Assembly: GCA_944376195.1 (NCBI GenBank)
Contig: CALWBW010000001.1
Coordinates: forward strand, 17,043-81,042
Length of the DNA stretch: 64,000 nt
Reading direction: 5' to 3'
Origin: an uncultured Clostridia bacterium
GTDB lineage: Bacteria; Bacillota; Clostridia; Oscillospirales; QAMX01
Positions 6,036 to 23,989 of the stretch are shown piece by piece; position 1 is the stretch's first letter, and the number at the start of each line of letters is the position of its first letter. A model generated the notes under the pieces. That model did not search any database and was not told the DNA's origin. It saw nothing but the letters and a program-made list of their open reading frames with translations. Position numbers and translations under genes: made by a program.

Positions 6036-6578
6036 ATGAAAAACGAAGAGCAGATCAGCCGCGAATTTGCAGTCAGTGAAGTGCGAAATATGGCGTTTCA
6101 GTTTTCCGACCTCTATTTTACATTTGTATCAGAATTGCGGGAACGCTTGGGGGAGGAAGAAGCAATTACGATTGCCACGCGCGTTCTCTTTCGGCGTGCG
6201 GCGGAACGTGCGCTTGACATGGTTCGACGTGCGGAAGCGGAAGGCGTTGCGCGTATTCCCGAAAATATCAACCGGATGACGGATGTACCGTTTTTGGGGT
6301 GGGATGCGTCTTTTGGCCGTGACTTATGCCCCTATGGTGCCGCCTGGAACCGCAGAATTGCAGAAAACCCCTGGTTTCAGCGTTTTGCGCGATTATATTG
6401 TGATGTTACGGATACGACCATTGCGGAGATTTTTACTGGCTGTTATTCTCACCGGCTCTATCACAATGTCGTCCTGGGCGACGATGCGTGTGAGCGTGAG
6501 TATTTTTTATCCGATTCCGTTCGGGAGGGAAAATGGACTTATGGGGCGTTGCCGGATGGAATGTACGCAAACAAGTAA
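6036..6578 (+). CDS. Small Cys-containing protein, possibly the L-2-amino-thiazoline-4-carboxylic acid hydrolase-like family
   Basis: 180-aa ORF with AAGAAAGGAAAA upstream. The family call rests only on my recollection of similar short Cys-rich clostridial proteins (LCPYG..., YCDVTD...), so it is weak. Confidence 0.35.
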   Translation: MKNEEQISREFAVSEVRNMAFQFSDLYFTFVSELRERLGEEEAITIATRVLFRRAAERALDMVRRAEAEGVARIPENINRMTDVPFLGWDASFGRDLCPYGAAWNRRIAENPWFQRFARLYCDVTDTTIAEIFTGCYSHRLYHNVVLGDDACEREYFLSDSVREGKWTYGALPDGMYANK

Positions 6579-6601
6579 CCTGTACAATGAAATTAATAAA
6601 A

Positions 6602-6628
6602 GCCGCACAGGGATTTCCCCTGTGCGGC
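6602..6628. terminator. Bidirectional terminator between convergent genes
   Basis: GCCGCACAGGG / CCCTGTGCGGC 11-bp stem with a 5-nt loop. There is a T-rich run downstream and an A-rich run upstream. Confidence 0.65.
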
Positions 6629-6644
6629 CTTTCTGCGTTTTTTC

Positions 6645-7274
6645 TTATTCCTGCAAAGGCGCGCCGTTTAGTTCTTCAACGCGGACTACGCCGCATCTCA
6701 CAGCGTAATCCAGCAATTCACAATAGTATCCGACTGTGGTCAGCTGCATATAGGGTCCGACATACAGAATCATCAAGATGCCACAAGTGAGAGAGGAAAG
6801 AAGCGCCCAGCCGATAAAGCTCAGCTGCAAAATAAAGAGCTCTGCCTTGTGGCCGCGCATGATGCGCATGGAAAGCTTCAATGCGTCTTGCGCGCTTACA
6901 TCCGGATAGGCGGCTAGGATGTAGGGGGTCATGGCATAGGAATATGCTTTTATTATGCCTGGAATGAAGAAAAGTAAGGACCACAAAAAAGTCCAGAGCA
7001 TCATCCAGAGATAACCGCCGACCTTGCGGGCATAGTTGATGGAAAAACCGGTTGCAAAAACAGTTGAAATTTGCGGGGAAGTGCCTTGAAATACCATCAG
7101 GTAATAACAGATGAGACCGAGCTGTAATGGAACCGCCACCAATAGTACTCCTATAAACGTATAGGATGCTATAGCGGCCAGCAGCACGACAATGAAAAGG
7201 GAACCGACACATCCCCCGTAATTACCGCGCAGCATCATTCTGGCACGCTCTTTGATCTGTGCACGAGTTGGCAT
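6645..7274 (-). CDS. DUF975-family integral membrane protein
   Basis: The N-terminus MPTRAQIKERARMMLRGNYGG followed by several hydrophobic spans is the typical DUF975 layout. An RBS AAGGAGGG lies upstream. Confidence 0.65.
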   Translation of the reverse strand: MPTRAQIKERARMMLRGNYGGCVGSLFIVVLLAAIASYTFIGVLLVAVPLQLGLICYYLMVFQGTSPQISTVFATGFSINYARKVGGYLWMMLWTFLWSLLFFIPGIIKAYSYAMTPYILAAYPDVSAQDALKLSMRIMRGHKAELFILQLSFIGWALLSSLTCGILMILYVGPYMQLTTVGYYCELLDYAVRCGVVRVEELNGAPLQE

Positions 7275-7345
7275 AGAAACCCTCCTTATTGCTTGATTTC
7301 ACAAACTGTTCACAAATATAATTATAAAGAAATTTGGATTTTTCG

Positions 7346-9532
7346 TCAAGTAAAAGATTTCAAATTTCGCAATGTAAAGCGCTCGTCAAGTGATTTCAAA
7401 GGTTTGGGAACGCCGTTTTCACAGAGCAGATATAATTTGTGCAGCGCGCGGGTACAGAGCAGGTAAAGCATACGGGGATCGCTGATATCGGAACAATCGG
7501 CAACTACCGCATCAAATTCCAGTCCTTTTGCCAGAACCGCGGGCAGAAAGACCATACCGGACGGCAATTCCTGCTCCGGATCAGTCAAAAGCGTGGCAGG
7601 AAGGGATACCGCTTCGAAAAGAGACTTCGTGCGCGCGGTGGTAGAGCAGATGATGGCGACCGTTCGGCAGTCTTCCAACACACCGCTATGACAGAGATCA
7701 GTCAGAAGATGCGCGGCTGTCGCACCGGTCAAAACCTCCGGCAGGGGCCCTTTTCGGTCAAAGAAGTCTATTTGATCATCCCCCGACAATCCGGATGCAA
7801 GTGCGCAAATAGGAGCGGTTGAGCGGTAGCTTCTTTCCAGAGAAACGTGGTGACAACCGGGATACAGTGCAAGGAGATCTTCCTCTGTGTTCAATCCAAG
7901 ACCAGGGAAGACAGACTGGCGCGGATCTGCAAGGACAGTAAACGTGGCGTAGGGATAGACTTTTTTCAATATGGCGTGTTGAAATGCCTGATAATCCTGC
8001 GCTTCATCAATTAAAAGTTGCCGTACGGTCAAATTTGGTTCAAAATTGCCAAGTAAAACAGCAAGATAAGAGATACATACGGCATCTTCATAATAAAGCG
8101 AAGTACTTTCCAACGCGGATTTAGTAAGTTGAAGGATTGCTTTTCCATTTTCTAATTTTTTGCAGTAATCCGCAAGAATCTGTTGATAAAGCGGCAGGAG
8201 CGCCAATCCGTTACGCGTATCGATTTCCGCAAGGGTATTCAATACGCTGTCACGGCGGCGGCGAATAAACTCCTCCTCGTATTCATCTTCAAAATAATCG
8301 CCGTCTGAACGCCAGATATCGTTCAAAATTTCTTTTTTATGCAAATCAAAATAATCTTCCAAGAGTGTGCGTGTATAATCTCGCGCATGTTTTAAAACAA
8401 CGTCAAACGGACGTTCCCGCATCATTTCTGCGCAGCGTTTGTCAAAATCTTGTGCGGAGCAGAGTATGGTATCTTCATAGGCAATGGCAGGCATATGGAA
8501 TGTAAAATTTTGAAAATATGCATGCATAAATTCCAGAAAAGAACGAGAGCCTTTAAGCACGATGGATTGCATCCGCAAATCCCCCTGCGGAGCGGAAAGC
8601 ACATATTCCGCCTGTGGGTAGTACTCCTCGAATGTAAATTCCTGCGGCAGAATACGATTGATGATATCGTCAAAAACCGTACAGCGCGCGTCTTCTTCTC
8701 CGAGTTCCGGTAAAATATCTGAAATGTATGAGGAAAACACACCATTGCGAGATATGATTTCAAAATTGTTAGTAGTTAAGCGTCCGCGATTCCGGTAAAG
8801 CAGATAGGCAAAACGATGCAGGCCAACTGATGTTTTCCCGGAACCTGCTGGACCGAAAATGATAAAATCACCCGCTGTTTCATCCCGAATGGCACGGTTT
8901 TGCTCCTGTTGAATGCTTTCAATGATAACTTTAAGTTTTGCTTGTGTATTTTCAGAAAGGGCTTCTCCCAGCGCTTCGTCATGTAAGGAAGCGTCGGCGT
9001 CATACATAAGCACCATTTTTCCGTCGCGGATTTTAAAGCGGCGCTTTAGTGCGACTCTTCCGCGCTCAATACCGTCCGGACTTTGAAACTGCGCGGGACC
9101 GACAGTGCAATCATAAAACATGGATGCAATCGGGGTGCGCCAGTCGTAGATGTAAGGTTCAAATGTTTCTCGATCAAAGAAGGAGTGCGCGCCGACATAG
9201 ACCCGCTCGCGAAAACCGTCGCGGTCGGAAACAAAATCCAAACGGCCGAAGTAGGGAATACGATAAAGAGAAAGCATGTTGCGCAATTCCAAAAGTGCAC
9301 TGCGGTAATCGTCATCTTCCCGGGCAATGTCTGCATCGTAGAGCGTGAGCGAGGCTACATCGTCAAAATCCCGGATGACATGCGTCAATTCATCCCACAT
9401 TTTATAGCCGGATTCTTCGATATTGGATTCGTGCCCGGAAATTTTACGCTCGAGTTCGGCAATCCGTTTTTTTAACTGTGCGCGGACATCCTCTAAATAC
9501 TGATATTCAGCCTTTCGCTCATTTTGATCCAT
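7346..9532 (-). CDS. helD: HelD-like UvrD/Rep superfamily 1 helicase (RNA polymerase-associated helicase IV family)
   Basis: 728 aa with an N-terminal coiled-coil region. Motifs are Walker A FGPAGSGKTSVGLHRFAYLLY, LIDEAQDY, SYRST and a C-terminal KGLEFDAVV. Confidence 0.75.
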   Translation of the reverse strand: MDQNERKAEYQYLEDVRAQLKKRIAELERKISGHESNIEESGYKMWDELTHVIRDFDDVASLTLYDADIAREDDDYRSALLELRNMLSLYRIPYFGRLDFVSDRDGFRERVYVGAHSFFDRETFEPYIYDWRTPIASMFYDCTVGPAQFQSPDGIERGRVALKRRFKIRDGKMVLMYDADASLHDEALGEALSENTQAKLKVIIESIQQEQNRAIRDETAGDFIIFGPAGSGKTSVGLHRFAYLLYRNRGRLTTNNFEIISRNGVFSSYISDILPELGEEDARCTVFDDIINRILPQEFTFEEYYPQAEYVLSAPQGDLRMQSIVLKGSRSFLEFMHAYFQNFTFHMPAIAYEDTILCSAQDFDKRCAEMMRERPFDVVLKHARDYTRTLLEDYFDLHKKEILNDIWRSDGDYFEDEYEEEFIRRRRDSVLNTLAEIDTRNGLALLPLYQQILADYCKKLENGKAILQLTKSALESTSLYYEDAVCISYLAVLLGNFEPNLTVRQLLIDEAQDYQAFQHAILKKVYPYATFTVLADPRQSVFPGLGLNTEEDLLALYPGCHHVSLERSYRSTAPICALASGLSGDDQIDFFDRKGPLPEVLTGATAAHLLTDLCHSGVLEDCRTVAIICSTTARTKSLFEAVSLPATLLTDPEQELPSGMVFLPAVLAKGLEFDAVVADCSDISDPRMLYLLCTRALHKLYLLCENGVPKPLKSLDERFTLRNLKSFT

Positions 9533-16299: not shown

Positions 16300-17067
16300 T
16301 TAAAACCGTGCATCCAGGGGCTCGTTGTCCATCAAAGCGGCAGGATCTATGGAGAAAATCCGTGCGACGGTATCGCGCAGCTTTCGTGCGTCGGAGAGGA
16401 AAATCTTTGCGTCTCCAAAAGTCCCGACTATTGTCGCGCCATCGCGAATGGCAACCGGTTCCACTTTCCAAAAGGTTTCCGAAATCAGTGGCGCACAGTG
16501 CCGGTGCTGTGGCGTGTAATGCCGTTTCCCTTCATAATCGACAACGTATAAATCCTGTGTGCCGGGCGTCAACGTTCCGGGAATGTGTTCCCATTCCTCA
16601 ACGCCGTGGATATAGGTGTTGCGCGTAAAATTCACACCGATCAGCATGATTTGCGCCCCACGGGTATAGAGACGGTGATAGACGCCGCCTTCCGGACAGG
16701 GGGTTACGGCTTTTTCTTCTCCTGCAAGAAATTCTGCCGCACCTGTCCCGATTGCCGCTACAGAGTGTGTCGGATGCAGGGAACGACGCACGCCCTCGCG
16801 TTTCCGAAAGAGCTCCGGCAGAATACCGACACATACAGGTGTATACAGAACGTCCATCACCGGATTTTTCGGGTTGACGTTATCCCAAGTGTGGGTGGGG
16901 AGGACGAGCAGCCCATTTTTCATGTATTCCATCAGCGCGTCAAGTACCGTATCGGCACGGCCTTCTACGTCGCCGATGCTCTTATAGGAAGAATGAACGA
17001 AGAGCGTCCCGTTTGGATTTACGCCAAGACGTTCCAGATCGTGCATCAGACTTTCTTTAGTATGCAT
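16300..17067 (-). CDS. AAC(3)-family aminoglycoside N-acetyltransferase-like protein
   Basis: ATG at 17067 is preceded by GGAGG; the track start at 17205 was rejected. LERLGVNPNGTLFVHSSYKSIG...LVLPTHT...SLHPTHSVAA is typical of the Antibiotic_NAT fold. Confidence 0.7.
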   Translation of the reverse strand: MHTKESLMHDLERLGVNPNGTLFVHSSYKSIGDVEGRADTVLDALMEYMKNGLLVLPTHTWDNVNPKNPVMDVLYTPVCVGILPELFRKREGVRRSLHPTHSVAAIGTGAAEFLAGEEKAVTPCPEGGVYHRLYTRGAQIMLIGVNFTRNTYIHGVEEWEHIPGTLTPGTQDLYVVDYEGKRHYTPQHRHCAPLISETFWKVEPVAIRDGATIVGTFGDAKIFLSDARKLRDTVARIFSIDPAALMDNEPLDARF

Positions 17068-17196
17068 AGGAAACCTCCGCATCATATTGTTTAAGATTAC
17101 CTTACCACATCTGCAGGAATCTGTCCAATGTTTTTGTGTAAAATCGCCCAATTTTTTCGAAGGAAAACAGAATGTGGATCGTAGTTTTAACAGATG

Positions 17197-17232
17197 TCGA
17201 GGCAAGCAAAAAAGATTTTTTGCTTGCCTCGA
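17197..17232. terminator. Bidirectional terminator after the ABC pair
   Basis: TCGAGGCAAGCAAAAAA / TTTTTTGCTTGCCTCGA, a 17-bp perfect palindrome around GAT. Confidence 0.75.
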
Positions 17233-17274: not shown

Positions 17275-19101
17275 TCAGTTGACGGAAACGGCGTCGGTCT
17301 CCTGTTCCGGATTCTCCTTGTACCACTGTTCCTGCGCTTCCCAAAGCCGGCGGTATTCGCCCTCTTTTTGTACGAGTTCCTCATGGGTACCGAGCTGGAC
17401 TGCGTGGCCGTCCTGCATGACAAGGATTCGGTCTGCCAGACGAACGGAGCCAATGCGATGCGTGACGATGACGGCGGACTTTTCCCGGGAAAGCTCGGCA
17501 AACCGGTTATAGACACGTGTTTCTTCATAGGGATCGATGGCTGCTGTCGGTTCATCCAGAATAATCAGGTTGTGATTGCGATAGAAACCACGGGCGATGG
17601 CGACCCGTTGCCACTGTCCGCCGGAGAGATCGACGCCATCGAATTCGCGGGAAAGCATGGTGTCATACCCGTTTGTAAAAGATGCATCGGCGGAATCACA
17701 TCCCGCCATTTTGCAGATTTCTTCCAGTTGCGCAGAATCCGCCTGTTTTGCGGTATCTGAAATGGCCAGATTTTCCCGCAGTGTCATTTGGTAACGCTGA
17801 TATTTCTGAAATACAGCGGTGGTCCCTTGATAGAGCGCTTCCGGGTCAATTTCTCGTGTGTCGACGCCGTTATGCAGAACCCGTCCTTCCGTTGGTAAAT
17901 AAAGCCCGGATAAAAGCCGGACAAGTGTAGATTTACCGGAACCGTTTTCTCCGACAATGGCAAGTGTTTCACCGCGACGCAAGGTAAAACTGACGTGCGA
18001 GAGGGCTGGACGTTCCGTATTAGGATAAGAGTACGTGACATCTTGAAAAGTAATATCGCCCCAAGCGGGGGCCTTTTTGATTTCGCCGCTACGTTCTGGA
18101 AGTTCGAGAAAACGAACGTAGTTGATCGTAGCGCCGAAATTTTGAGCAAGTCGCCCGATGTGCATTTGGACAACTTCCGCCATGATACTGTACAGCATCC
18201 CCATATTGGCAAACACAGCCGCAAACGCACCGACGGTGATTTCTCCAGCCATGAGCGCGGTAAAAAGCATATAAAGGATTCCAAAATACCCAAGTATCGT
18301 AATAACGTTCATGGAAAGCTCGAATAAACTTGAGCGGAACTCCGCCCGCATTCGAAGTTTTAAGCAGAGCCGGTAGCTTTCTGAAAATTTTTCCTTAAAG
18401 TAGGCAAAACCACCAAGCAACCTTGTTTCTTTTAAATATTCGCGATCTGCGACTGCCTTTTCATAATATTCATATTCGCGGCGCTTTGGTGCGGATTCGT
18501 CTTCCAGTTTTGAAAATACTTTTGCACGAATCAGCTGCGTAAGTGCCGTGGGGATGAAGATAATCACAATGGTCAGCAAGAACAGCGGTTTCAACGAGAA
18601 AAGGTACCATCCGACGAATAGAAAGTAAGGGAGATAAAAGCAGAGAATAATTTCTATGACGGCGAAAAGCTCTACTGCAGCGCCTGCGCCCATTCCCGCT
18701 TTGTTGATATCGTCAAGCGTTTCCGTATTTTCAAAAACTTCCGGAGAGAGACGCCTGATCCGTGCGTTAATTTCAAACCGAAACATCTGCATTTTGCGCA
18801 TGTTCAAAACATACCACATATAATTGGAGATCCCGTTTAAAAGCTGCGTCATGACGGCGGTAAAAGCCAGCGCGGCAAAAGCAAGAAGTACACTGCGAAA
18901 TTCCGCAGTTTTTCCCACAAAACTTGCTGTTGCGTCAAAAAAATACTGTCGCACAAGAATATCGAATCCCCAGAAAAGACCATGTATGATACTGATTGCT
19001 ACTGCAATCCAAAAATATACCGGAGAAATTCTGATAATTTTCGGCGTAATTGTTTTGAGGAGCAAGAAGAGGTTCAATTTTTCGTTTTCTTTCTTTTTCA
19101 T
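17275..19101 (-). CDS. ABC exporter, fused permease-ATPase, second subunit of pair 2
   Basis: ATG at 19101 forms an ATGA overlap with the upstream stop, with AAGGAG 9 nt upstream. Walker A is GENGSGKST, signature LSGGQWQRVAIARG, Walker B IILDEPTAAID. Confidence 0.9.
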   Translation of the reverse strand: MKKKENEKLNLFLLLKTITPKIIRISPVYFWIAVAISIIHGLFWGFDILVRQYFFDATASFVGKTAEFRSVLLAFAALAFTAVMTQLLNGISNYMWYVLNMRKMQMFRFEINARIRRLSPEVFENTETLDDINKAGMGAGAAVELFAVIEIILCFYLPYFLFVGWYLFSLKPLFLLTIVIIFIPTALTQLIRAKVFSKLEDESAPKRREYEYYEKAVADREYLKETRLLGGFAYFKEKFSESYRLCLKLRMRAEFRSSLFELSMNVITILGYFGILYMLFTALMAGEITVGAFAAVFANMGMLYSIMAEVVQMHIGRLAQNFGATINYVRFLELPERSGEIKKAPAWGDITFQDVTYSYPNTERPALSHVSFTLRRGETLAIVGENGSGKSTLVRLLSGLYLPTEGRVLHNGVDTREIDPEALYQGTTAVFQKYQRYQMTLRENLAISDTAKQADSAQLEEICKMAGCDSADASFTNGYDTMLSREFDGVDLSGGQWQRVAIARGFYRNHNLIILDEPTAAIDPYEETRVYNRFAELSREKSAVIVTHRIGSVRLADRILVMQDGHAVQLGTHEELVQKEGEYRRLWEAQEQWYKENPEQETDAVSVN

Positions 19102-20891
19102 GCGTACCAACTCCTTTGAGCCTCAAACATTTCCGCGTAGATACCGCCCGAAGCGACGAGCATTTCATGGCTGCCCTGTTCGGCAACATGACCGCTATCT
19201 AAAACGATGATTTCATCCGCCAGACGCGCTGCACCCAACCGATGCGTAATAAAAATGGTGGATTTGCCGGCGCTGATCTGCCCGAACATTCGATAAACCT
19301 CGCTTTCTGCCACAGGATCGAGCGCAGCGGTCGGTTCATCGAGAATACGCATGTGCGCCGGATTATAAAGCGCGCGTGCAATGGCAAAACGTTGCCATTG
19401 TCCACCGGAAATGTCTACGCCGCCTTCGTGAATTTTTCCAAGCCAGGTATCGTAGCCCTGCGGCAACTCCCGGATGGCCTCGTCCAGACCAATAAATTTT
19501 GCCACCTCCTGAATTTTTGCGTCGTCATAGGAAAGTACGTTGCCGAGCGCAATATTATCGGCGGCTTTGACGTAATACCTTGCAAAATCCTGGTAGACTA
19601 CGCCGAACATCGCTTTGAGCTGCGCCTGGGAAAATTCTCGAATACTGCGTCCATCGATGAGAATTTCCCCTTCAAAGTTGTCATAAAGGCCGGTGAGGAG
19701 TTTGGTTAAGGTAGTTTTTCCGGCGCCGTTGACCCCGACAATAGCGTAGTGCCGTCCCGCTTTCAGCGTCAGGTTGAGGTTTTGCAGGACGTAGAGCTCT
19801 GTACCGGGATAGCGAAAGCTGACATTTTGAAACGCAATGGTGTCAAAGCAAACCGTCTCTGCGGGGACAGGAGGATCCAGCGCGCCTGCTGATTCTTCCA
19901 GTGCACAGAACTTGATCAGATCGCGGAGATACGCCATGTTTTTTGCCAGTTCATGTGTGACAGAAGAAAGCTGCCAGGACATCATCTGTACCAGGGAGAG
20001 AGTTGCCGTAACGAGAGAGATGAACATACCGGAGGACAAATCTCCCTGTGTGTAGGGAACGAGCAAAATGGCAATGATGGAGAGCGAGAGAAGCGCTGTA
20101 ATGATGGAAGATGTTTTCATACGGATAAATTGCTGCTTCAGCGTCCTCACTTCAATCCGGCGCGCTTGGTCCGCACGTTCCAGCCAGCGGCGGTTGACGT
20201 CTTCTGTGTAGTCGAAAAGAGCACGTTCTTCTGCCGCTTCGCGGGACAGGATCACAGATTTCAGATAATCCGCCCGGCGGCGGTGCTTCTCCGCTTCCTG
20301 CCAGGCCGTATATTCTTTTTCCCCGGCCTTTTTGGAAATTAAGAAAAGTGGTATGGAAATGGCAAGAATCGCAAGCCCGGCCCACCAGATTTGTGCGGTG
20401 ATGAGCAACAGAAGGGAGCCGACCCGTACAATAATGGAGATCAGGTTCAAGATGGTACAGAAAGCGTTTCGAATTTGCAGTTCCGGTTCTTTACAGACTC
20501 TTGCGATAAGATCCCAGGTTTCATTGTTTTCAACATGATAATAGGCCAATTTTGCCCGCTTTTCCAAGATTTCCGTTCGGTAAACGGCGCCTAATTGTTG
20601 GTCAATGCCCAGTGTGGTAAACCGATTGATTGTATTGGAAAGCGTATCGTAGGCCAAAAGGAGCAATAAATAAGTGAGCGGAGGAAAAATCGCAGAATAG
20701 GCGGTATTTCCTGCAAAAATGGCCAGCGCTGTATCGACAAAAAGCGCAGTAGCCATGGCCTGCGCCGTTGTCGTGAGTGAAGACAAGAGCATATGCAGGC
20801 ACTTGCCAATGGAAGGAATAGGCGCGGCTTGAAAAGGAATCAGGATAAAATCCCAAATTTTGTAACGCCGGCTTTGTTCAATATATTTCAA
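19098..20891 (-). CDS. ABC exporter, fused permease-ATPase, first subunit of pair 2
   Basis: TTG start. Walker A is GVNGAGKTT, signature ISGGQWQRFAIARA, Walker B RILDEPTAALD. Both ATP sites in this pair look canonical. Confidence 0.9.
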   Translation of the reverse strand: MKYIEQSRRYKIWDFILIPFQAAPIPSIGKCLHMLLSSLTTTAQAMATALFVDTALAIFAGNTAYSAIFPPLTYLLLLLAYDTLSNTINRFTTLGIDQQLGAVYRTEILEKRAKLAYYHVENNETWDLIARVCKEPELQIRNAFCTILNLISIIVRVGSLLLLITAQIWWAGLAILAISIPLFLISKKAGEKEYTAWQEAEKHRRRADYLKSVILSREAAEERALFDYTEDVNRRWLERADQARRIEVRTLKQQFIRMKTSSIITALLSLSIIAILLVPYTQGDLSSGMFISLVTATLSLVQMMSWQLSSVTHELAKNMAYLRDLIKFCALEESAGALDPPVPAETVCFDTIAFQNVSFRYPGTELYVLQNLNLTLKAGRHYAIVGVNGAGKTTLTKLLTGLYDNFEGEILIDGRSIREFSQAQLKAMFGVVYQDFARYYVKAADNIALGNVLSYDDAKIQEVAKFIGLDEAIRELPQGYDTWLGKIHEGGVDISGGQWQRFAIARALYNPAHMRILDEPTAALDPVAESEVYRMFGQISAGKSTIFITHRLGAARLADEIIVLDSGHVAEQGSHEMLVASGGIYAEMFEAQRSWYA

Positions 20892-20942
20892 GGAAACACC
20901 GCCTTTTCAGAAATACAACTTCCTGCCCTAATTATGAAAAAT

Positions 20943-20971
20943 AGTTTAATATACTAAAAATATTTTGTCAA
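20943..20971 (-). promoter_or_regulatory. Promoter of ABC exporter pair 2
   Basis: On the minus strand: TTGACA (20971-20966), 17 nt, TAAACT (20948-20943). Confidence 0.55.
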
Positions 20972-20995
20972 GGTCTATCAAAAATCTGTCGAATT

Positions 20996-21247
20996 TTATA
21001 GAAAAATCTGTACCTTTTCCCCGTTGGCGCTTTCTACGTCGACCAAAGGTTGCCCTTTTAAATGACGCCGTGCACGACAAAATCCACGCATCAGGGTTCG
21101 TGTTTGCGCATAGGTCATCTCGGACAAGGAATCCACTTGCGGTACGACAAATTTTTGGACAAGCAAAGCTCCCAGAGAGTTAAAAACCAGGTGGGTGGGA
21201 ATAGGAATATAAATATTACGCCCATTGGCGTTGACATGGATCTGCAT
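20996..21247 (-). CDS. Stand-alone small protein paralogous to the C-terminal domain of the adjacent XRE regulator
   Basis: 83 aa, starting 3 nt after the regulator's stop. It shares MQIHVNANG...IPIP..LV...PQV and LVDVESANGEKVQIFL with the regulator's ILHIIVNSSNG...VNLPLVLV...PQV and LVEVESANGDIVEIVVE. Confidence 0.6.
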   Translation of the reverse strand: MQIHVNANGRNIYIPIPTHLVFNSLGALLVQKFVVPQVDSLSEMTYAQTRTLMRGFCRARRHLKGQPLVDVESANGEKVQIFL

Positions 21248-21250
21248 GCG

Positions 21251-21745
21251 TCATTCCACCACAATTTCCACAATATCCCCATTTGCACTTTCGACTTCCA
21301 CCAATTTTCCGATCAGTCCTCGGTCGACCAGAAGAAGTACTTTTTCCAAGTCAATGTTTTGCAAGTTTGGATTCCCCGCAACTTGCGGCAGACTCAGACC
21401 GACTTCCAGTGCCGTTTTCACCAGCACAAGCGGCAGGTTTACGCGAACTTTGTCGCCATTGGAGGAGTTTACAATGATATGTAAAATCATATCGTCTGTA
21501 TTTTTTCGTTTTTCAGCAGGCAAAATGGCCACCTCCGGTTCCGGATTGTTGTTTAACAGCGCATCAATGGTGGTGTTGTATAGTTGGGCAATTTGTGGCA
21601 ACAACATGACGTCAGGACAGGAGGAATCGTTTTCCCATTTGGAAACTGCCTGCGGGGAGACGCCGAGACGCTCGGCAACCGTATCCTGTGTCAATCCATG
21701 TTCACGGCGAAGCGCAAATAATTTTTTTCCAAGACTCTGTTCCAT
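21251..21745 (-). CDS. XRE-family HTH transcriptional regulator with an uncharacterised C-terminal domain
   Basis: ATG at 21745 is preceded by AAAGGAGGTA; the track start at 21790 was rejected. The HTH is LRREHGLTQDTVAERLGVSPQAVSKWEND, followed by DVMLLPQIAQLYNTTIDALL and a C-terminal domain of about 80 aa. Confidence 0.85.
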   Translation of the reverse strand: MEQSLGKKLFALRREHGLTQDTVAERLGVSPQAVSKWENDSSCPDVMLLPQIAQLYNTTIDALLNNNPEPEVAILPAEKRKNTDDMILHIIVNSSNGDKVRVNLPLVLVKTALEVGLSLPQVAGNPNLQNIDLEKVLLLVDRGLIGKLVEVESANGDIVEIVVE

Positions 21746-21955
21746 AAAAATACCTCCTTTAATTGTGGGGGGACGGTTTCCGGCAGGCATGCAACCTGCT
21801 ACGCCATAAATGTTGTATGAAACCGCCTAAAGCGTTTTTCCTGCTTTTATTGTATGGGGATATGTAGGAAAAATCAATCAACTGTTCTGGGAATCGCCCG
21901 CAAAATCACAACTGTAAGTAGAAAAATCACTCTACTATTGGTTGATATCACGTCT

Positions 21956-21993
21956 AAAAAATCTGCGCCCCATTAAAAGGACGCAGATTTTTT
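21956..21993. terminator. Bidirectional terminator downstream of the aldo/keto reductase gene
   Basis: AAAAAATCTGCG...CGCAGATTTTTT hairpin, with A-runs and T-runs on both sides. Confidence 0.65.
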
Positions 21994-22005: not shown

Positions 22006-22872
22006 TTATACGATGTCCAGCCAGGTTTTACGAGTGGGAGCAGGGTAGTCGCGGGAAAGTTCCGCCAAATCCTCGGCAGTCAACGAAATATCGAGAGCTT
22101 TGGCGTTTTCTTCCGTATGGGTGGGGGAGGAAGATTTCGGAATGGGGATGACATGGCTCCGTTGGAGAGTAAAAGCCAAAAGAATTTGCGCGGTACTGGC
22201 CTGATGACGGCGCGCCACTGCCGTCAATCCACGGTTTCCGATCAAACCGCGTTCGAGGTCTCCATATTGTGCAAGAGGGCAGTAAGCCATTGCGGTCATG
22301 CCATGAGATTCCAACCAGGGCAATAAATCAAATTCAACGCCACGCGACGCCAGATGATAGAGAATCTGGTCGGTGACGCAGTGTGTTCCGTTTGGAACCT
22401 GAATTAGTTCCTGCATATCGGAAGTATCCAAATTGGAAACACCCCAATGGCGGATAAGTCCTCGTGATATCAGTTCCTCCATGCACTCCACGGTTTCGGA
22501 AAAGGGGATATTGCCGCGCCAGTGCAGCAAATAGAGATCCAGATAGTCAGTGCCAAGCCGTTTTAAGGAAGCTTCGCAACTTTTAAGAATATTCGCTCGT
22601 CCGGCATTGTGCGGATAAACCTTGGAGACCAGATAAAGGGAAGCGCGGTCCGTTTCGCGTATGGCCTCGCCAATGAGCGCTTCGCTGCGTCCGCCGCCAT
22701 ACATTTCCGCAGTGTCGATGAGATTCAGGCCGCGTTCGATTCCACAACGGAGTGCAGCAAGTTCTGAGGAACGGCGACTGTGATTTTCTCCCAGATGCCA
22801 GGTGCCCTGTCCAAGACGCACGACAGATGCGCCGGAAGCAGTTTGAAAAGCGGGATGCGAGATGGTTTTCAT
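22006..22872 (-). CDS. Aldo/keto reductase
   Basis: 288 aa. Motifs are LGQGTWHLGE, IDTAEMYGGGRSE, LDLYLLHW and IPIPKSSSPTHTEEN. Confidence 0.85.
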   Translation of the reverse strand: MKTISHPAFQTASGASVVRLGQGTWHLGENHSRRSSELAALRCGIERGLNLIDTAEMYGGGRSEALIGEAIRETDRASLYLVSKVYPHNAGRANILKSCEASLKRLGTDYLDLYLLHWRGNIPFSETVECMEELISRGLIRHWGVSNLDTSDMQELIQVPNGTHCVTDQILYHLASRGVEFDLLPWLESHGMTAMAYCPLAQYGDLERGLIGNRGLTAVARRHQASTAQILLAFTLQRSHVIPIPKSSSPTHTEENAKALDISLTAEDLAELSRDYPAPTRKTWLDIV

Positions 22873-22885
22873 GCAATACTCCTTT

Positions 22886-23989
22886 TTATTTGTTTCGATG
22901 TTTTTGGAAATAGGTTAAAAATTCCAACCAATCGCGCCGGCTGAGGAAATGGTCACCAGCGCGCATATGATAGCCGATGTATCCCTCGTGGAAGGCTTCT
23001 CCTGCAACAGGATAGCGGTCTGGCCCGGTAAAAGAGGGAAACATGCCATAGAAATCCCAAATTCGCGCAGAAGCCCAACATGCGCGGTACTGAGAGGTAG
23101 GGGCCGTCCAGAGATCGGCGTCGGCGGAGGCAATATAGAGCCGGCGCGGCGCGATCAGCGAGAGCAGAAAATGTTGATCGAACGGCAGCTTCGTTTCCTG
23201 TCCCGCGTACGATTGATACCGTTCGCAGAACCAATAAGGGAACGTATTGCAGATATCGCGAAGATGTTCTGCTTCGCGGGCTACGCCGCGCGATAATGCC
23301 GCGCCGCTACAGCCGGATTCATTTGCAAAGCAAAAGGCAAAACGCTCGTCGTTGGCAGCGGTCCAAAGGGCAGTTTTGCCAAGCCGAGAGTGTCCAACAA
23401 TTCCGATATTTTTGGAATCAATGGTTTCCAGGGTTTGGATATAGTCCATTGCCCGCATGGCTGCCCAGGCCCAGATTGAAATTTTTCCCGGATCCGAGGC
23501 CTTGCGTTTTCCGTTGGGAAACAGCAGACCGGCCAAGCCGTCTGTAAAATTGGCGTCATCATGCGTTACATCATGATAGCAGAAGGAAAAACAGGCAAAT
23601 CCATGATCGACAATCTCTTCCGTAGGCATGTAACGATCCGGTACTGCGTCACGAAAATTGATATGTAAAAAAGCGGGGCAGGGTCGGTTTGCTATAGGAA
23701 TCACACAATAGAGAGGAAAGGTATGGCTTCCGTTTGCCGTTGTGATGCAAATATTTACCTGGAAAAATTCTGCGCTGCCACCGCCGAAACTACGAGATGG
23801 TTCTTTTTGATACCGGATATCACAGTCTAACTCCGGTAAAAAACCGTATTCTTCACGTGCAAGCAACGACAAAATGTCCGTGCGGCGTTTTTGAAAAAGC
23901 TCCAATGTCAAATTTTCAGGAGAAACAGGAGCAGGATACGCAAAGATATCGGGAAGGCCGAGTTCCAGGACATCGCGAAAGACACTCAT
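22886..23989 (-). CDS. Alpha/beta hydrolase, CE15 glucuronoyl-esterase-like, no signal peptide
   Basis: The nucleophile context GIVGHSRLGKTALW resembles the CE15 G-x-S-R-x-GK motif. Downstream lies FDQHFLLSLIAPRRLYI. The assignment is from motif memory only. Confidence 0.45.
   Translation of the reverse strand: MSVFRDVLELGLPDIFAYPAPVSPENLTLELFQKRRTDILSLLAREEYGFLPELDCDIRYQKEPSRSFGGGSAEFFQVNICITTANGSHTFPLYCVIPIANRPCPAFLHINFRDAVPDRYMPTEEIVDHGFACFSFCYHDVTHDDANFTDGLAGLLFPNGKRKASDPGKISIWAWAAMRAMDYIQTLETIDSKNIGIVGHSRLGKTALWTAANDERFAFCFANESGCSGAALSRGVAREAEHLRDICNTFPYWFCERYQSYAGQETKLPFDQHFLLSLIAPRRLYIASADADLWTAPTSQYRACWASARIWDFYGMFPSFTGPDRYPVAGEAFHEGYIGYHMRAGDHFLSRRDWLEFLTYFQKHRNK

Follow-up and report, generated by a model that had tools for sequence, protein, structure and literature searches.

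A conserved two-gene module of an XRE-family regulator and a free paralogue of its C-terminal domain, with an ABC exporter pair as neighbour in an uncultured Clostridia bacterium

Results

A regulator and a free copy of its C-terminal domain form a conserved module

We analysed a 64,000-nt stretch of DNA from an uncultured Clostridia bacterium (contig CALWBW010000001.1, hereafter the window), in which the gene for an XRE-family regulator is directly followed by a small gene, whose product we call the small protein, and further on by the genes of an ATP-binding cassette (ABC) exporter pair, all four lying on the minus strand. Comparison with related loci (labelled L001, L004 and so on) showed that the regulator and the small gene are a conserved, widespread two-gene module, in which the small protein is a stand-alone paralogue of the regulator's C-terminal domain. 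The exporter pair is a lineage-specific neighbour outside this module and its coupling to the regulator is a local accident. We consider the chances evenly balanced that the module is a self-contained, autoregulated repressor with a paralogous partner, following a logic like that of SinR/SinI on a different, uncharacterised fold.

The paralogy had been proposed in an earlier reading of the window from its letters alone (the sequence-only reading) and was confirmed by both pairwise and profile comparisons. In BLASTP the small protein aligned over its full length with residues 86-163 of the regulator (E-value 3e-5; 86 columns, 30% identity), and in hhalign a profile of 63 small proteins matched a C-terminal profile drawn from 90 regulators with a probability of 96.8% (E 2.2e-10, 73 columns), as against 0.2% for the helix-turn-helix (HTH) half. 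In many other loci, too, the hidden Markov model of the small family matched the C-domain of the regulator over its whole length. In the AlphaFold models of the regulator and the small protein (predicted local distance difference test, pLDDT, 87 and 79, respectively), the regulator C-domain runs strand-strand, three helices, strand-strand, and the small protein has the same order with two to three helices. The best-kept common elements are an N-terminal hairpin ending in (L/I)P and a C-terminal hairpin, LVEVES-x-DGD-x-V-x-I. Among the shared blocks first listed for the pair, I-x-V-N-x-x-NG needs amending, since the small protein lacks one residue there (IHVNANG vs IIVNSSNG).

The two copies carry complementary charges, the regulator domain being acidic throughout and the small protein basic. 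Across 74 pairs, the last 80 residues of the regulator have a mean net charge of -6 and an isoelectric point (pI) of 4.5, whilst the small proteins average +8.3 with a pI of 10.1, their helices being rich in lysine and arginine and strongly diverged from those of the regulator in both charge and sequence. Mean pairwise identity is 28% for the small protein, 48% for the regulator C-domain and 60% for the HTH.

Regulator relatives number at least 4,733 in a 90%-clustered database, mostly of about 164 amino acids (aa) and 56-85% identical over their full length, with about 45-60% identity retained across orders. A pattern scan of one genome per species gave at least 600 matches, 583 of those listed encode a relative, and the 80 loci that were kept come from Oscillospiraceae, Lachnospiraceae, Christensenellales, Erysipelotrichaceae, uncultured Bacilli and one 'Mollicutes' genome. 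Of the loci, 87 had 280 nt or more of downstream sequence, and all 87 carry an adjacent open-reading frame (ORF) of the small family. The same small ORF, here of 85 aa, lies directly downstream of the regulator (WP_103201680.1) in Herbinix hemicellulosilytica (Lachnospiraceae). The gap between the two genes is mostly -4 to +6 nt across loci, which suggests translational coupling.

Members of the small family surfaced beside regulator homologues and in profile searches, whilst a word-index homologue search with the 83-aa protein alone returned a single match, 96% identical. The exhaustive profile search, with E up to 0.001, yielded no fewer than 1,266 clusters at 50% identity, almost all made up of stand-alone proteins of 77-99 aa. 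Together with the unbroken adjacency, this identifies the small ORF as a real, fast-evolving gene under selection, and settles in its favour the question of conservation on which the sequence-only reading had made its proposal depend. Homologues of the small protein from NCBI assemblies (clusters P0133, P0139, P0141 and P0169) carry neither accession nor product name in the collection, so the gene may often be unannotated or merely called hypothetical. In one locus (L013, ~6534-6800) an in-frame stop codon of the small gene interrupts the conserved C-terminal hairpin (…LVEV*ERATGDKVIISIN), which could be a sequencing error, a pseudogene or a case of read-through.

The shared domain belongs to no characterised family

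The regulator C-domain and the small protein represent an uncharacterised domain, without a name, a structure or a located paper, as the sequence-only reading had supposed. Neither regulator residues 85-164 nor the 83-aa protein gave a match in Pfam. At the family level, Pfam, NCBIfam, PADLOC and PHROGs all lack a model for the small proteins, which are unnamed in their source databases. Sequence searches of PDB matched the HTH and neither the C-domain nor the small protein, and Foldseek found nothing in PDB for the small-protein model (best E 0.43, template modelling (TM) score <0.3) and, for the regulator model, matches to the HTH alone. Literature searches surfaced the SinR/SinI precedent but no publication dealing with this family or with its operator.

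Candidate relationships to known families were considered and set aside. The motif V-x-(I/L)-P-x-x-L had suggested to us a swapped hairpin of the AbrB/MazE/SpoVT kind, an idea that found no support, as the 63 members gave no Pfam match at E up to 10 and Foldseek no match in PDB. A CBO2463/CBO2479 domain of NCBIfam (E 0.16, 22 residues) was found in one of the 63 members and is treated as noise, and Pfam SinI (PF08671) matched a single small protein of the 63 (E 0.074) and neither protein of the window.

The N-terminal half of the regulator is, by contrast with its C-domain, readily placed. Its gene has the position and size first assigned to it, and residues 11-62 are the standard XRE HTH expected (HTH_3, PF01381; 55.6 bits against a Pfam cut-off of 23), modelled as five helices within residues 5-64 in a lambda-repressor-like fold. 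In Foldseek searches of PDB the HTH superposed on those of ImmR and P22 c2 with TM scores of 0.88-0.92 and root mean square deviations (rmsd) of 1.0-1.4 Å (ImmR, 39% identity and TM 0.88), and 434, DdrO and SinR were among the other matches in fold or sequence. Matches of the regulator to HipB and PezA in NCBIfam were weak and confined to the HTH, whilst PDB matches of the regulator model to HppE and cupins had rmsd >11 Å, were due to the HTH alone and were rejected.

A conserved palindrome array lies upstream of the regulator

A palindrome, TCAACC-N3-GGTTGA, was found with at most two mismatches in 74 of 80 distinct promoters of the family, at a median of 128 nt 5' of the ATG, and in 40 of these 74 anchored promoters a second GTTG half-site follows exactly 23 bp downstream of the first. 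The 7-mer TGGTTGA occurs in 42 of 78 upstream regions, as against seven of ~750 background windows, and is more enriched than the ribosome-binding site motif. Site density is 5.1 per kb upstream of the regulator, as against 0.04 per kb inside the genes of the module and 0.25 per kb over the 300 nt that follow, and elsewhere in the 834 kb of loci there were only four near-perfect sites.

The window carries two candidate sites, O1 and O2, which together make up a 38-bp array (Table 1). O1 is identical in L001, an 85%-identical relative, save for one position within the N spacer, and the O2 element is also visible in an alignment of six promoters, in which a third conserved element of the CAAC/GTTG type abuts the -35 box of the regulator promoter. 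On sequence grounds, this conserved array points to autoregulation of the regulator, since an XRE repressor that controls its own gene and binds as cooperating dimers would be expected to have a promoter of this kind. The resemblance of the HTH to those of dimeric repressors (ImmR, P22 c2, 434 and SinR) counts in the same direction.

Two features beside the array may be recorded here. Between the -10 box and the ribosome-binding site (21746-21848, minus strand), the window and L001 have some 60 nt that other members lack, and this extra stretch includes a hairpin, GCAGG-N7-CCTGC, at 21799..21783. In L037, a second XRE protein of 474 aa (6795-8219) begins 11 nt past the small gene, with a similar HTH (HQAVSKWENG) and a repetitive-looking C-terminal region; beyond the stop of the small gene, at a distance of 36-75 nt, the locus has three operator-like sites, one of them TCAACCGCCGGTTGC, and this protein may be a paralogous regulator using the same operator.

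Layout of the locus in the window

The coordinates of the module, its predicted control elements and the exporter pair are collected in Table 1. An AGGAGG ribosome-binding site lies 8 nt 5' of the regulator ATG, which makes the longer, 179-aa ORF start unnecessary. The junction between the regulator stop and the start of the small gene reads TGA-CGC-ATG, which agrees with the 3-nt gap described in the sequence-only reading. At its 3' end (21251-21262), the regulator gene encodes the conserved C-terminal I-V-V-E as ATT GTG GTG GAA, which contains GGTGGA, a Shine-Dalgarno-like sequence for the small gene, so that the sequence of the protein and the coupling of translation may each limit changes in the other.

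Table 1 Features of the module and its neighbourhood in the window.
Feature	Coordinates	Strand	Remarks
XRE-family regulator, 164 aa	21251..21745	-	ORF with ribosome-binding site
Parts of the regulator			Cro/C1-type HTH (residues ~5-64), linker, acidic C-terminal domain (residues ~85-164)
Small protein, 83 aa	20996..21247	-	Basic, stand-alone; paralogue of the regulator C-terminal domain
Predicted operator O1, TCAACCAATAGTAGA	21931..21945	-	Two mismatches to the family palindrome
Predicted operator O2, TCTACTTACAGTTGT	21908..21922	-	Exactly 23 bp downstream of O1
Regulator promoter	21849..21888	-	-35 TTGATT (21877..21872), -10 TACAAT (21854..21849); 9/12 consensus positions
ABC half-transporter 1 (ABC1), 597 aa	19098..20891	-	Membrane and ATPase domains; Pfam ABC_tran, 104 bits
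ABC half-transporter 2 (ABC2), 611 aa	17275..19110	-	Pfam ABC_tran, 108 bits; 13-nt overlap with ABC1
ABC-pair promoter, sigma-70-like, TTGACA-17-TAAACT	20943..20971	-	10/12 consensus positions

Upstream of the module are an aldo-keto reductase gene (22006-22872) and a gene for a GCE_fung-type esterase (22886-23989), in the same order in L001 and L004. A strong hairpin, AAATCTGCGCCC / GGACGCAGATTT, with A and T runs on its flanks, separates the operator array from the aldo-keto reductase gene at 21959-21990 and is probably a bidirectional terminator insulating the module. On the far side of the ABC pair, the gene at 16300-17205 (minus strand) is the positional counterpart of an Antibiotic_NAT-domain (aminoglycoside 3-N-acetyltransferase) gene in L001, the two loci being syntenic.

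Discussion

A proposed repressor with a paralogous partner

The sequence-only reading had suggested that the free domain pairs or competes with the domain of the regulator, as a partner or decoy, and this is the best reading of the family as a whole, since it fits the co-occurrence in 87 of 87 loci, the translational coupling and the opposite charges. In the scheme that we propose, the first gene would encode an XRE repressor whose HTH dimers occupy the two palindromes, 23 bp apart, and the half-site against its own -35 box, so that the operon would be autoregulated. The second would supply, by translational coupling, a fast-evolving and strongly basic free copy of the acidic C-terminal domain. 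Regulator and small protein would associate via their common beta-hairpins (I-x-V-N...(L/I)P and LVEVES-x-DGD-x-V-x-I), and the resulting hetero-oligomers may alter the valency, oligomeric state or DNA affinity of the repressor. As both proteins come from one transcript, any signal would have to be post-translational, and could for instance involve a ligand, sequestration or protein stability. We judge hetero-association of the two proteins to be somewhat probable; that the small protein acts as an antagonist of the regulator is possible, and is put forward more tentatively.

The arrangement recalls SinR/SinI, and also SlrR/SlrA, of Bacillus subtilis, in that the C-terminal region of an XRE repressor is also encoded as a small, stand-alone neighbour. 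The likeness extends to the HTH, which matches that of SinR in both sequence and fold, and to the homology of the small protein with the regulator C-terminal region, established by BLASTP and hhalign as above. In the SinR-SinI heterodimer (PMC3163267), the surface is formed by residues conserved between both proteins, and heterodimer formation abolishes DNA binding. The domain common to the present pair is, however, about 80 aa long and has two to three helices besides its four strands, whereas SinI is a short helical hook; the gene order is reversed, with the regulator first and the two genes translationally coupled, and the charges are opposed, strongly basic in the partner and acidic in the regulator domain. 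The module would work like SinR/SinI but is not a member of that system.

Several observations weigh against this interpretation. The sinI gene is under separate transcriptional control, whereas comparable control of the small gene is not evident from the gap of mostly -4 to +6 nt, no promoter having been looked for inside the regulator gene, and a pure antagonist made at a fixed ratio needs extra post-translational input. A small protein with such basic helices might just as well bind nucleic acid by itself. The operator copies in the window are degenerate, O1 having two mismatches and O2 four against the O1 consensus. In its favour, the divergence of the small protein tracks that of the C-domain more closely than that of the HTH (partial r 0.48 vs 0.30), which is only suggestive, as are the opposite charges; shared phylogeny inflates mirror-tree correlations of this kind.

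The same basic protein could instead strengthen repression, sitting on the DNA together with the regulator and either bridging the dimers spaced 23 bp apart or adding contacts of its own. Such a co-repressor would suit co-transcription at a fixed ratio, as expected of an obligate partner, as well as the strongly basic, K/R-rich helices, and the fixed spacing of the two-site operator implies a higher-order assembly of some kind. The small protein nevertheless evolves much faster (28% identity) than the operator or the HTH (60%), which would be unusual for a protein in contact with conserved DNA, and we regard a co-repressor as unlikely.

The ABC exporter pair as a lineage-specific neighbour

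Both ABC proteins gave NCBIfam matches (MsbA-like and type I secretion-like) that fall below the cut-offs, and their Walker A, Walker B-Glu and H-loop motifs are canonical. The GGQWQR that had been taken for a variant of the signature motif is no such thing, as both ATPases hold an intact (L/I)SGGQ that is merely continued by WQR. The promoter ascribed to the pair, TTGACA-17-TAAACT, is indeed present at 20971..20943.

The sequence-only reading had further described the regulator as coupled to this exporter pair, a description that did not survive a survey of co-occurrence. An ABC ATPase lies within ~4.5 kb of the module, on either side, in only 14 of 81 non-redundant loci, and when the 602 flanking proteins of these loci were clustered no family was found in more than 14 of them, that one consisting of generic ABC ATPases. 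A co-directional exporter of the same kind directly after the module is confined to the window, its close relatives L001-L004 and L010, and L040, whilst Herbinix has an unrelated ABC-2-type system 468 nt away. Some co-directional gene follows within 150 nt in only 21 of the 61 loci with at least 1.2 kb downstream, and in many loci the next gene is convergent. The translations of the co-directional genes, as we read them, are mutually unrelated, and include relatives of Tex, ClpB, ribosomal protein L19 and a glycosyltransferase, a second XRE regulator, and ABC exporters.

A circuit in which the neighbouring ABC promoter is controlled by the regulator in response to a substrate or stress, the free domain serving as decoy or partner switch, could appeal to the adjacency and common strand of the genes, seen in the window as well as in relatives 71-85% identical to it. 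In the window, no terminator was predicted in the 104-nt spacer that separates ABC1 from the small gene, and in L004 and L010 the first ABC gene follows the small gene after a mere 26 nt, so the four genes there are probably one transcript and read-through co-transcription is possible in this lineage. Against such a circuit stand the conservation of the module across Firmicutes without the exporter and the mutually unrelated nature of the genes that take its place, and we consider it a rather improbable account.

Direct control of the ABC promoter by the regulator is improbable to the same degree. In the promoter region 20892-20995 neither the family consensus nor the lineage-specific O1 was found; the region has two AT-rich inverted repeats of its own, unrelated to the operator of the module (TTTTCAGAAATA / TAATTATGAAAA and AAAATAGTTT / AAAATATTTT, within 20904-20966, the second overlapping the -10 box and spacer), which may be a site for another regulator. 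A two-mismatch operator-like match at 21039-21053 was discarded, as it lies inside the small gene and arises from the codons of the conserved L-V-(D/E), with an equivalent in L020 at the same position from CTG-GTT-GAA. In the scheme proposed above, the ABC pair would be a neighbour acquired in this lineage with its own promoter, receiving at most read-through from the autoregulated promoter.

Independent effectors, phage repressors and toxin-antitoxin systems

The small protein might also be an independent effector, associated with nucleic acid, the ribosome or the membrane, and merely the regulated cargo of the repressor, the two domains being products of an old duplication with no present interaction. 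This would accommodate the strong divergence of its helices from those of the regulator, and the small gene is the sole gene always found under the autoregulated promoter. What the two proteins have retained in common, though, are two beta-hairpins, typical association surfaces, and strict linkage over an estimated class-level divergence favours, along with the opposite charges, a physical pair, which leaves an independent effector very improbable.

Phage and integrative and conjugative element (ICE) repressors of the XRE family (ImmR, P22 c2, 434 cI and DdrO) are the best sequence and structure matches of the HTH. Repressors of this type are dimeric and autoregulated, bind palindromic operators and are controlled by proteolysis (ImmA, IrrE, RecA). 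They differ from the present regulator in their C-terminal domains and have no paralogous free domain in their control, whilst the present module has no linked protease gene and was not found complete on viral contigs. A phrog of unassigned function (phrog_38149) aligns weakly to nearly the whole regulator (E 8e-4, residues 3-160), and phages may thus carry a rare relative of full length, despite the HTH-level matches that were all the viral-contig scan returned.

A toxin-antitoxin-like or phage-derived immunity module, with an XRE antitoxin or repressor and a small toxin or anti-repressor, would share the HTH-first gene order, tight coupling and autoregulation of type II toxin-antitoxin operons (HipB, HigA, PezA), but its probability is close to negligible given the varied, ordinary or core chromosomal genes around the module in place of a mobile or patchy context, the absence of full-length regulators from the viral contigs scanned, a regulator far better conserved than typical antitoxins, and a second gene that is a paralogue of a domain of the first and has no toxin-family, PADLOC or PHROGs match.

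Significance

The module is widespread in gut and rumen Clostridia, in Erysipelotrichia and in reduced-genome Bacilli, widely enough to merit experimental work, and the incidental place of the ABC exporter beside it is a caution against inferring function from gene adjacency. It is quite possible that it represents an ancient, Firmicutes-wide and hitherto undescribed switch, in which a co-encoded 'microprotein' copy of an oligomerisation or sensor domain, without relatives in PDB or Pfam, controls its parent regulator, and which may govern a distant regulon through TCAACC-N3-GGTTGA. The conserved predicted operator offers a handle for a regulon search in cultured species such as Herbinix hemicellulosilytica, Provencibacterium massiliense or Luoshenia tenuis. 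Should the small protein indeed titrate or assist its parent, the SinR/SinI principle would have a second example, independent in structure and far more widespread than the original.

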